Shown here: positions 12,605 to 16,045 of the stretch, piece after piece
Numbering within the stretch: position 1 is the first letter of the stretch
Layout of the letters: every line of letters begins with the position of its first letter
Source: Promethearchaeota archaeon
GTDB taxonomy: Archaea > Asgardarchaeota > Lokiarchaeia > Sigyniarchaeales > SOKP01
NCBI GenBank assembly: GCA_019057795.1
Contig: JAHLWS010000056.1
Span: forward strand, 17,582 to 81,581
Direction: 5' to 3'
DNA: 64,000 nucleotides
Notes under the pieces: model-generated
Seen by the model: only the letters and a program-made list of their open reading frames with translations
The model's database searches: none
What the model was told of the DNA's origin: nothing
Translations under genes and position numbers: made by a program

Positions 12605-13309
12605 ATGGCCGAGGAATTTGACTTTGAAAAGTATTGGCTAAATAAGTTTTCTAACTGTTTAGACGAGGTTGCTGGAGAAGAAGTAAGAAAAGATGTAATG
12701 ACCGGAAGTGAAAAGCTTTCAGATGCATCGTCCAGAGAAGAAGTTATTAACTGGTCTAATCAAGCTATGGAAAGATTAAGTTCTTTAGTTAACGACGAAA
12801 AACAAATTGGTGTCATGACGGGATGCGCTTGTAATTATTCTAAATCTCAATTACAAGAGATAAGAGAAAAGTACGAACAAACAAAGGATATTAACGTAGC
12901 ACATCGTATGCTACAGGAACAATTTGAATCTCTGCTCAAGGATACACTTAAATTAAATGAAGATCTTATCAAAAAAGTTATTAAAAAAGGATGGAGTACT
13001 GCTGGAGTTAAGGAAGGAAATGTAATTATAGCTACCAAGATTCCTAAAAGCGCTTATATTAAACAATATTTAGAAACAACTGATCCAGACGAAAAAAGGG
13101 CCATTTATTGCCATTGTCCTCGCGTTAGAGACGCTTTAAAATTGTCAATAGAGAATTTACCAGAAATTTATTGCTACTGTGGAGCAGGCTTTTTCAAAGG
13201 TATCTGGGAAGAAATCCTTCAAAAACCCGTAAAAGTTAAGGTTTTAGAATCTGTTATGAAAGGAGACGAAGTGTGCAAAATTGCAATATATCTTCCTCCG
13301 GATGCGTAA
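12605..13309 (+). CDS. DUF6144-like Cys-containing protein
   Basis: GCAC, YCHCP, YCYCGAGF, ESVMKGDEVC motifs; start moved to ATG 12605 (MAEEFDF). Confidence 0.7.
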   Translation: MAEEFDFEKYWLNKFSNCLDEVAGEEVRKDVMTGSEKLSDASSREEVINWSNQAMERLSSLVNDEKQIGVMTGCACNYSKSQLQEIREKYEQTKDINVAHRMLQEQFESLLKDTLKLNEDLIKKVIKKGWSTAGVKEGNVIIATKIPKSAYIKQYLETTDPDEKRAIYCHCPRVRDALKLSIENLPEIYCYCGAGFFKGIWEEILQKPVKVKVLESVMKGDEVCKIAIYLPPDA

Positions 13310-13330
13310 ATTTAGAAAGAATAAAAGCGA

Positions 13331-13654
13331 CACCTGAGATATATACCCACCTTTTTGTTCTATTTCTCGTCGCCAAGAAATAGGTGGGGCATCAAACTAA
13401 GCGGCCTACCTAAAACTCGTTCCAAATACTCATCGCTTTCATTTGGCCTTGCACCAAGGTTTTAGCTCGTTCCAACCGTTCCCGATTACAATTTCTCTGG
13501 CTTAAATCCAAGTCATTAATGTACGTAAAAGGGCAGTGCCGTTTCAGTTGCTAAAATACGATTTTCACCGTAGTAGTTATCTACTCCTTGCTTGGAAAGT
13601 GAGGTGAGGTTCCTCAGCAGTTCAATGACTACCGTCAGCCCCATATTTCATGTG
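13331..13654 (-). ncRNA. rnpB: archaeal RNase P RNA
   Basis: Minus strand: GAGGAACCUCACCU and AACAAAAAGGUGGGUAU form P4 with the conserved bulged U; GGGGC/GCCCC P2; GCAACUGAAAC and GCAAGGCCAA conserved segments; P1 CACAUGAAAUAU/AUAUCUCAGGUG; P19-like hairpin CUAUUUCU/AGAAAUAG. Confidence 0.93.
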
Positions 13655-13860
13655 ATTTTCTTTTTTTCGCTTTTTACTTTCCAATTAATACATAGTTCCA
13701 TAACTATTTATAATTTAAGGTTATCTTGCAACGGTGTTATTTACAAAATTAAAAATACTTTTGAATTTAAAGCTCAATCTATATATCACTGGGATTGTTT
13801 TTTATAGAGAATAAAAAAAAAGTTATTAATTATTTTATTTATTTGTTAGAATGTCTTGAA

Positions 13861-16045
13861 CTAGGATAGAGCAAGTAAGTTTCCAAGCAACCCAGCTCCG
13901 CCATTGAACATTAGAAGTAAACCCATGAAAATCGAAGCTGTCAACGACATCACTACTAACAGCGTGTTTATACTTGGTCCTGCGGTGTCCTTTCATCGAT
14001 AATTGGTTTTCAATACCAAAGACCTTAAATGGGTCACCGACCGTATCTCCCGTTATACTAGCTTTATGTACTTCAGTCCCTTTTCCTCCAAGGTTACCGT
14101 CCTCTATCCATTTCTTTGCGTTATCCCATGCCCCACTTATGCTTTTTGCTCGAAATAAGCTATAATCTGCATTGGACATAAACACTGCAAACACAAATCC
14201 GGATAAGATAGCTCCAGCTAAGAATGCTACTAAGGAAGCTACGCCAAAAAGAATTCCAACACCAATAGGAACAGTTATAGAAATAATGCTTGGTATAATT
14301 AACTCACGTAGTGAGCCTTTTGTTGCAATATCAATTGTTTTATGGAAATCAGCGGGTTCTTCACCAGTTAATATTTTTGGATTTTCTTCAAATTGCCTAC
14401 GAATTTCATCGACCATCTTCGCTGCGTTTCTTTGGACAGCTAAGACTAACAACGCTGAAAATAGCGCTGGGATAACAACTCCTATAAAGGCACCTACTAG
14501 AACATTGACGCTTAATAAATCCACAACAGTAATACCAGCCTCTTCTGCAAAGGAAAACATTAAAGCCATGACGGTTAAGTTCGCAGCTCCAATTGCGAAT
14601 CCCTTTGTAATTGCTTTGGCGGTGTTACCAGCAGAATCTAATTTATCAGCAGTTCTAATTACTTCATCACCTAATTCTCCTTGTTCTGCAATAGCTCTTG
14701 CATTGTCAACGATTGGGCCATACGCATCATTTGTTACTATTGTTCCTACAATTGCTAACATTCCAACAGCAGCCATTGCTACACCAAATACACCAGCTAA
14801 CCAAAATGCAATTGTCATAGCAAGTATAACTCCTATTGCAGGAGGAACTACACTTAGAAGTCCATATGAGAAACCAGAAAGAATTACAACTGCATGACCT
14901 TCTTTAGCAGCATGAGCTATGTTTTGTACTGGTTTCCTATCATCCCGAGTAAAATAATCACTCGTAAAACCTAAAACTATACCAGATATAAGTCCAATCA
15001 CTGATGTGCCCCATATTCGCCATAATAACCACATTTCATCGTCTCCTAATCCAATTGATAGGAAAATCGTTATTACAGCGGATAATGCAAAATAGATTAA
15101 AGTTGCTAAATAAGTTCCTGTGTTTAAAGCTTTTCCAGGTTCTTCAGAACCTTTATATTTTATTATGTATATTCCTATAAGCGAAGCAATTAGCCCTACG
15201 CCGCAAAAAACAACTGGAGCAACAATAAATACAGAGGTTCCTATAGTTGTTAATGTTACATTTGCGAAAGGTGCTTTAATAATACCTGCTACACCAAAGG
15301 CTGCTGCAAGCATCATTGCTGCAACAATGGATGCAACATAAGAATCGAATAGGTCACTGCCCATTCCAGCTATGTCACCAACATTATCACCTACATTATC
15401 AGCGATCGTTGCTGGATTTCTTGGATCATCTTCAGGTAGATTGTATTCAGCTTTTCCTACTAAATCAGCACCTACATCTGCTGTTTTCGTAAAAATTCCA
15501 CCGCCACACTTCATAAATAAAGCTATACTACTGGCACCGAAGCTAAACCCTAACACAACAAGAGGAGACTGAAAAATCCAATAGATTATTGATACGCCTA
15601 TTAAAGCAACTCCCACCACGGCTAAACCCATTACTGCTCCTCCAAAAAATGCTACATCGAAACCGGCTTTTGTGCCCTTGGTACAACCTTGTGCTGCTCT
15701 CGTATTTGCTTTAACACCAACATACATCCCTAACCAACCTGCGAGCATAGAACCCACACAACCAATTAAGTACGCTATCGCTTGTTCCCAATTTAATGTC
15801 CCAGGATTCGTCATATTAGGAAGTAAGAATAACATTACTAAAAAAAGTACTCCTACAAAGATTCCAAGAACTTTATATTGGACTTTTAAGTATGTTTTAG
15901 CCCCTTCTTCGATATATCCAGCGACTTCTTGCATTCTTTCGTTGCCAGGATCTTCTTTTAAAACTAAAGATCTAAAGTATACAGCAAGAACGATTGAAAT
16001 TATCCCTGCGATTAGTGCAACAATTAAAATTATTGGCACTGCCAT
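13861..16045 (-). CDS. hppA: membrane H+-translocating pyrophosphatase (K+-independent type), spliced: complement(join(13861..13991,14026..14136,14167..16045)), 706 aa
   Basis: GGGIFTKTADVGADLVGK, EDDPRN, DNVGDNVGD, GNTAKA (Lys indicates K+-independent); removing two inserts restores MSNAGGAWDNAKK and GDTVGDPFKDTAGPSIN plus a final TM helix ending at TAG 13861-13863; exon sum 2121 nt. Confidence 0.95.
13992..14025 (-). other. putative BHB mRNA intron 2 of hppA (34 nt, frame-disrupting)
   Basis: Intron AGGUCUUUGGUAUUGAAAACCAAUUAUCGAUGAA; central helix CAUU/GAUG, bulges UA^A and AA^A, exon helix CGGUG-A-CC/GG-A-CACCG, intron hairpin UUGGU/ACCAA; ligation gives UUU A|AG GAC (F-K-D). Confidence 0.88.
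14137..14166 (-). other. putative BHB mRNA intron 1 of hppA (30 nt, in frame)
   Basis: Intron AUUAUAGCUUAUUUCGAGCAAAAAGCAUAA; central helix AUGC/GCAU, bulges AG^A and AA^G, exon helix AUGUCCA/UGG(G)GCAU; ligation gives GCA G|GU GGG (A-G-G). Confidence 0.85.

Follow-up and report, generated by a model that had tools for sequence, protein, structure and literature searches.

The hppA gene analysed here contains, close to its 3' end, a 30-nt insert (intron 1) that is very probably a BHB intron spliced out of the mRNA. The BHB nature of intron 1 and its origin from a homing cassette, taken jointly, are likely: judged from the sequences, intron 1 and a second, frameshifting insert (intron 2) would both belong to one selfish cassette that exchanges the end of the gene. 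A BHB intron pair carried by a LAGLIDADG gene-end cassette appears to be new, and it would provide a concrete entry route of introns into archaeal protein genes. Positions are those of the window, the whole 64,000-nt stretch of DNA that was analysed, and the features of the locus are collected in Table 1.

Table 1. Features of the hppA locus, in window positions.
Feature	Positions	Strand	Remarks
hppA, membrane pyrophosphatase (PF03030)	13861..16045	-	both introns included; start 16045, true stop 13863-13861
Intron 1, 30 nt, in frame, stop-free	14137..14166	-	phase 1 in Gly627 codon; adds 10 codons
Intron 1 central helix, exon strand AUGC	14169..14172	-	followed by bulge 14168-14166 (AG^A)
Intron 1 central helix, intron strand GCAU	14139..14142	-	followed by bulge 14138-14136 (AA^G)
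Complete hBHBh' motif of intron 1	14128..14179	-	exon-exon helix 14179-14173 with 14135-14128
Intron 2, 34 nt, frameshifting	13992..14025	-	splits Lys664 codon before catalytic Asp665
Swapped hppA 3' end plus ~39 nt of cassette-type tail	13822..14174	-	synonymous-rich divergence from intron-less sister allele begins at 14174
T-run, change from cassette-type to host/stump-type tail	13813..13821	-	probable junction of the nuclease and stump deletion
Equivalent of stump starts in five nuclease-bearing relatives	14113..14125	-	11-23 nt past intron-1 site

The hppA gene and its product

In a Pfam search, hppA was matched by PF03030 with an E-value of 2e-217, and this was the sole PF03030 match found in the genome. 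Promethearchaeota MAGs are the closest relatives that bear a name, which makes the host an Asgard archaeon of the Loki type. As called, the gene is a read-through ORF of 736 aa that ends at 13835. Removal of both introns yields a product of 706 aa ending at 13861, which is 98.7% identical to the intact relative P0132; the conserved protein of the intron-less orthologues is thereby restored, one of the features by which introns of the cbf5 type (see below) are recognised. Assembly error was excluded as the source of the insert by the presence of the same gene in an independent Logan assembly, and near-identical inserts in JGI and ENA contigs also argue against it.

In helix 16 of the spliced protein (13950-13990, minus strand), a Val occupies the position where the gate Lys is usual, as in the Asgard orthologues seen. 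Directly downstream of hppA lies an archaeal RNase P RNA gene (RF00373, 123.5 bits; 13331-13654, minus strand). A DDE transposase gene (PF01609; 11003-12310, minus strand) is located 1.5 kb downstream of hppA, and no connection between it and the introns was found.

Intron 1, its BHB fold and its relation to intron 2

The insert at 14166-14137 on the minus strand adds ten codons, contains no stop and keeps the frame, which can be seen directly in the sequence and had been pointed out in the preliminary description. That gene callers would overlook intron 1 is borne out by the unspliced 736-aa product, which is present in both NCBI and Logan, and public proteins of this lineage can include translated introns. 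The same description had placed the insert in a single register lying on the BHB cut sites, and this also holds: among the 21 possible 30-nt deletions in the region, one alone (14166-14137) regains the NAGGAW motif (conserved NAGGAWD), and it coincides with a BHB whose 4-bp helix stands between bulges of 3 nt, the cut site in either bulge following its second base. The exon-exon helix of this fold has 7 bp and one bulged G, and the intron-intron helix is short. An equal BHB score was reached by 29 of 139,800 random 30-nt windows (0.02%) from the ORFs of this genome. A stop-free insert is unremarkable by itself, because shuffled versions of intron 1 were stop-free in 38-52% of cases, a chance of about 45% per allele. 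A group I or group II self-splicing intron was ruled out by the size of 30 nt, as the ribozyme core takes up hundreds of bases; Rfam gave no intron match in the window interval 13200-14400.

Intron 2 can be placed in five equivalent registers, of which the BHB fold singles out one. The two introns show no sequence relationship (alignment z from -2.3 to 1.4), as had been observed earlier, and because their sequences differ, their first origins may be separate. The earlier suggestion that they arrived independently did not stand up: both introns occur together in all nine distinct intron-bearing alleles, on one replacement gene end of a LAGLIDADG cassette, and independent arrival is therefore unsupported. 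A donor for intron 1 or intron 2 was not found elsewhere in the genome, and a protein search with the shifted frame beyond intron 2 returned no match.

Probable replacement of the gene end in this genome

Compared with its closest intron-less relative, hppA has 4 differences in the 600 nt upstream of the swapped end, and its last 79 codons carry 30 synonymous changes and 1 non-synonymous change, starting 8 nt before intron 1. The 5' and 3' hppA trees are discordant within the closest clade. A sharp drop in identity together with such discordance at the break is how a WHO-type replacement (see below) is recognised. Intron 2 is located some 90-100 nt into the swapped segment, and no part in immunity is evident for it. 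Neither a stump nor a nuclease gene was found downstream of hppA in this genome, where the replaced end alone remains. The switch of tail at the T-run near 13815 fits a deletion between two repeated ends; in the locus L119 the tail switches earlier, at about the stop codon.

The intron-bearing alleles do not form one clade in the 5' tree (p-AU 1e-5) or in the 3' tree (p-AU 0.005), and the replacement ends cluster with local host alleles. Because these alleles are not monophyletic in either tree, the cassette appears to be old, and to track or recombine with local host alleles, rather than to stem from a single recent sweep. At present it is rare: among the 400 and the 135 genomes searched, many of which are incomplete, this genome alone (1 of 400 and 1 of 135) matched the intron patterns.

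The putative homing cassette in relatives

The complete cassette is preserved in relatives, in the order intron-bearing hppA with both introns, free-standing LAGLIDADG nuclease gene, and old intron-less hppA 3' stump. This layout, again a mark of WHO-type elements, was seen in L266, L112, L121 and L278/L279. In L266, the order is intron-bearing hppA, a gene for a 539-aa LAGLIDADG protein (P0137), and a duplicate hppA 3' end that lacks introns. The arrangement recurs in L112, where the nuclease is internally deleted, and in L121, where cargo genes intervene, while L278/L279 carry the allele type of the present genome, followed by the nuclease, the stump and the usual downstream gene. Wherever the site can be seen in a cassette locus, in five of five cases, intron 1 is present; three nuclease contigs do not extend to the intron sites. 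The replacement ends differ from their own stumps at 18-23% of bases, and we infer that the stretch in which the stumps begin (14113-14125) corresponds to the nuclease cut or lies just downstream of it.

Several loci depart from this plan or extend it. The cargo of L121 (4577-10330) amounts to about 5.8 kb between the replacement hppA end and the nuclease, with ORFs of 987 and 206 aa among it. In L273, the nuclease gene points towards the intron-bearing hppA end in convergent orientation instead of following it in tandem, and a stump cannot be seen. In L022 (4637-4690), L057 (5302-5376) and L028 (4223-4252), the very 3' end of hppA is repeated as a short additional copy behind intron-less genes, and these copies are possibly the stumps of other insertions.

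The five closest homologues of the nuclease that were looked up all adjoin hppA or its stump. The hppA-linked nucleases fall into one supported clade, together with three proteins of unknown context. Homologues were detected in 49 of 134 genomes of the host's family and in 0 of 14 genomes of a sister family, and no relatives of the nuclease were found in viral contigs. The Pfam scan of the nuclease gave LAGLIDADG_3 only; structure prediction returned a confident two-motif LAGLIDADG enzyme, whose fold matches are generic LAGLIDADG enzymes. Both acidic (catalytic) LAGLIDADG motifs are present in most copies.

Proposed homing cycle and the role of intron 1

In the proposed cycle, the free-standing LAGLIDADG endonuclease encoded 3' of hppA would cut intron-less hppA near the GGAWDN codons. 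Repair off a cassette-bearing copy would install the replacement 3' end, with both introns and the recoded codons, followed by the nuclease gene, and would push the old hppA 3' end downstream as a stump, which is the anatomy seen in relatives. Intron 1, at the left edge of the swapped tract, would break the nuclease target and protect the carrier, and this immunity role is slightly favoured over its absence. In the present genome, the nuclease and stump would later have been lost, apparently via recombination at the shared T-run past the stop, leaving the intron-bearing end in place. Stated for the Loki-type Asgard class as a whole, the proposal is that a LAGLIDADG nuclease homes by gene-end replacement with a spliced 30-nt BHB intron as its immunity mark, and that mRNA introns stay behind permanently in essential genes once the nuclease is lost, so that such cassettes would generally supply protein genes with introns; for this wider statement the balance is even.

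A serious though less probable alternative accepts both splicing and homing and regards the spliced BHB intron as a passenger of the cassette, with resistance arising from synonymous recoding. Recoding alone could be enough, by analogy with the yeast WHO elements, in which resistance exists without introns (PMC7282813), and the divergence of the replacement ends from the stumps (18-23%) fits this explanation, as does the distance of intron 2 from the break. The stumps also start downstream of the intron-1 site and not at the site; because they start 11-23 nt beyond it, a target of 20-24 bp may include intron 1 at its margin only. Against a passenger stand the presence of intron 1 in five of five cassette loci with a visible site and the onset of divergence from the sister allele at most 8 nt from intron 1. 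A mannosidase-like gene elsewhere in this genome (G000, C65 68150-69722) speaks in the same direction: it comprises an old 5' stump, an antisense LAGLIDADG gene for a related nuclease and a replacement 5' end that bears a BHB insert of 30 nt containing a stop, and the 5' stump ends exactly at the insert site.

It is improbable that the introns are old, vertically inherited and lost many times, with the nuclease a mere neighbour that never moved them. Such a history is compatible with the scattering of the intron alleles over both trees (p-AU 1e-5 for 5' and 0.005 for 3'), with the local grouping of the replacement ends, and with the homology of intron 1 between lineages, where 12-27 of 30 positions are identical. 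However, it requires the joint loss of both introns in nearly all genomes, the patterns having been found in 1 of 400 and 1 of 135, and it leaves the intron-less stumps behind the nuclease and the sharp recombination boundary unexplained.

Probable splicing of the introns

Both sites are intact in 97 of 111 loci scored, the rest comprising copies from this genome itself, truncated loci, or variants of the motif that the pattern missed; among proteins, both sites were intact in 127 of 132 scored. Both introns are found at the same positions in five diverged allele types, and in all five intron 1 is 30 nt long, stop-free and homologous across lineages. Over seven alleles, pairing was kept in 95.8% of cells as against 35-52% in slid controls, figures that are descriptive only, because the structure was derived from these same, related sequences. 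Four pairs have changed on both sides, one of them being an Asn third position matched by an intron base. In 4 of 7 alleles the central helix opens with a mismatched pair, which makes the motif a relaxed one. Structure is thus kept while the sequence diverges, another recognised feature of cbf5-type introns. In five lineages, synonymous codons were invariant at 7 of the 14 positions that adjoin the introns, compared with 0 of 48 at other positions, and the frozen codons are limited to positions that pair. This invariance is a more independent sign of an intron than the pairing figures. A spliced hppA contig was not found: the single candidate, P0014, a short Logan contig of 2.2 kb, was rejected on its host-type codons.

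The genome contains two EndA genes (G000 C69 and C74), one with and the other without the catalytic His, and it also encodes RtcB. The tRNA-splicing endonuclease (two-subunit EndA) would excise the intron from the hppA mRNA and RtcB would rejoin the exons, restoring helix 15 of the pump. In the predicted model, the site of intron 1 lies mid-way in a continuous helix (residues 602-641), and in the alignment to solved structures intron 1 appears as a clean 10-residue gap. By the numbering of the structure alignment, the insertion point is four residues ahead of the equivalent of Thermotoga Asp660, which we take to be a substrate-site residue. Intron 2 falls before the equivalent of Asp696, which coordinates the nucleophilic water (PMC5336470). 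We strongly infer that the hppA introns are spliced, because of the register, the pairing, the frozen codons, the presence of EndA and RtcB, and the split helix. Retention of intron 1 would plausibly give an inactive isoform, as the modelled insertion is mid-helix and next to the active site; a transcript that keeps intron 2 is frameshifted in any case.

It is very unlikely that the insert stays unspliced as a tolerated 10-residue protein loop. The length of 30 nt and freedom from stops in five of five allele types, together with a preserved Lys-Ser pair, would suit a loop, but the peptides vary widely where RNA pairing is kept, and the site is mid-helix within an invariant motif. Freedom from stops has a chance of about 45% per allele, and the allele set consists of relatives that were in part picked by protein search. 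Moreover, other 30-nt BHB inserts of this genus have stops, and the gene requires splicing of intron 2 anyway. Least probable of all is a dead gene broken by two insertions: intron 2 does shift the frame ahead of helix 16, but this is the single hppA copy found in the genome, its downstream exons show 30 synonymous to 1 non-synonymous changes, and the protein is nearly identical in five lineages.

Relation to known systems

Yokobori et al. (2009; PMC2738675) described a BHB intron of 16-44 nt in the cbf5 pre-mRNA of Desulfurococcales and Sulfolobales and showed its splicing; in-frame BHB mRNA introns of 33, 36 and 39 nt were already published there for cbf5, and the origin of the intron was stated to be unclear (PMC2738675). 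The hppA introns are likewise short and ORF-less and interrupt a protein gene within a conserved functional motif; in both systems the cut sites follow the second bulge base, EndA has two subunits, and some copies are in frame. They differ in gene and phylum, in occurring two per gene, in their patchy distribution among close relatives, and in being physically linked to a free-standing homing nuclease; splicing has been demonstrated for cbf5, whereas for hppA it is predicted. In the searchable literature, archaeal mRNA BHB introns comprise only cbf5 and one Haloferax 5' UTR (PMC2738675, PMC7714728). Archaeal rRNA BHB introns encode LAGLIDADG nucleases (as summarised in PMC2738675) and share with hppA the association of a BHB intron with a homing nuclease, but the hppA nuclease lies outside the intron and its host gene is protein-coding.

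Coughlan et al. (2020; PMC7282813) reported the WHO elements of Torulaspora and Lachancea yeasts, in which allele identity drops from 99% to 85%. The two systems share a LAGLIDADG nuclease 3' of the host gene, a replacement 3' end upstream and the old 3' fragment downstream, an abrupt drop in identity (for hppA, 99% to about 87%), discordant 5' and 3' trees, and later decay or deletion of nuclease and fragment. Unlike WHO elements, the hppA system is archaeal, its replacement end holds mini-introns, which are presumably spliced, and Pfam scans of its nuclease gave no intein-like or WHO-type zinc-finger domain; cutting by the hppA nuclease is a prediction. The hppA nuclease is not filed here as a WHO member.

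Collaborative homing has been described for the psbA intron and F-CphI of cyanophage S-PM2 (PMC6083498, PMC2988022). An ORF-less intron in a conserved gene lies there too beside a free-standing nuclease, and for hppA such a nuclease is predicted to cut the intron-less allele. S-PM2 is a phage whose intron is of the self-splicing group I type and whose nuclease is of the Endo VII type, and the accessible text describes no duplicated gene end. The hppA gene lies on a cellular chromosome, its nuclease is a LAGLIDADG enzyme, and its 30-nt intron would be spliced by enzymes and may be protective. By analogy, the hppA system would work like yeast WHO elements and phage collaborative homing combined, with an intron of the cbf5 type. 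Literature on this combination of cassette and intron, or on such introns in Asgard protein genes, was not found in a search that left subscription journals mostly outside.

A 2026 preprint on Asgard tRNA introns names their route of arrival as the central open problem (10.64898/2026.10.13.758758). The hppA locus gives a traceable series from empty allele to full cassette, decayed nuclease and lost nuclease, and it supplies a nuclease, a short candidate target and a 60-nt RNA substrate that can be tested in vitro without culture. If the proposal is true, nuclease loss leaves permanent introns in essential genes of the closest prokaryotic relatives of eukaryotes. Its scope is that of tRNA-endonuclease introns, with nothing direct on spliceosomal introns.

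Other inserts and cassettes

It had been expected that more in-frame BHB introns would be hidden in apparently intact genes. None that convinces came from either a motif-free comparison or a motif scan, both of which have low power. The motif-free comparison covered 1.6 Mb of G044 and 1 Mb of G028 (comparison genomes), locus flanks and paralogues, and yielded no other convincing in-frame BHB insert. The motif-only scan with coding scores gave mostly noise. A stricter scan gave 3 in-frame matches of 30 nt, namely intron 1, one normal AAA P-loop and one further candidate, where other lengths gave about 2 each; several of its frameshift matches were rejected because they lie inside intact ORFs. 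At most about one in-frame case is to be expected, because only about five convincing disrupting inserts were found in this genome (G000).

In a phosphofructokinase-like gene (G000 C70 27462 and 27778, plus strand), two inserts occupy conserved motifs, one of 31 nt that shifts the frame and one of 30 nt with stops and a relaxed central helix; no nuclease or stump was found within 7 kb. Two 29-nt inserts were seen in a cold-shock-like gene and a small HEL-motif gene (G000 C79 71925 and C49 81154, respectively, both minus strand). In both, a palindromic 4-mer (CTAG and CATG) that occurs at either border forms the central helix, which suggests that a short duplication can create a BHB. Two further BHB-like inserts of G028 are absent from G000. 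One, of 30 nt with a stop, lies in an AAA-type gene (L170 8619, plus strand). The other, of 29 nt, lies in the P-loop of an eIF2-gamma-like gene (L157 7244, minus strand), with a related LAGLIDADG gene about 470 nt away.
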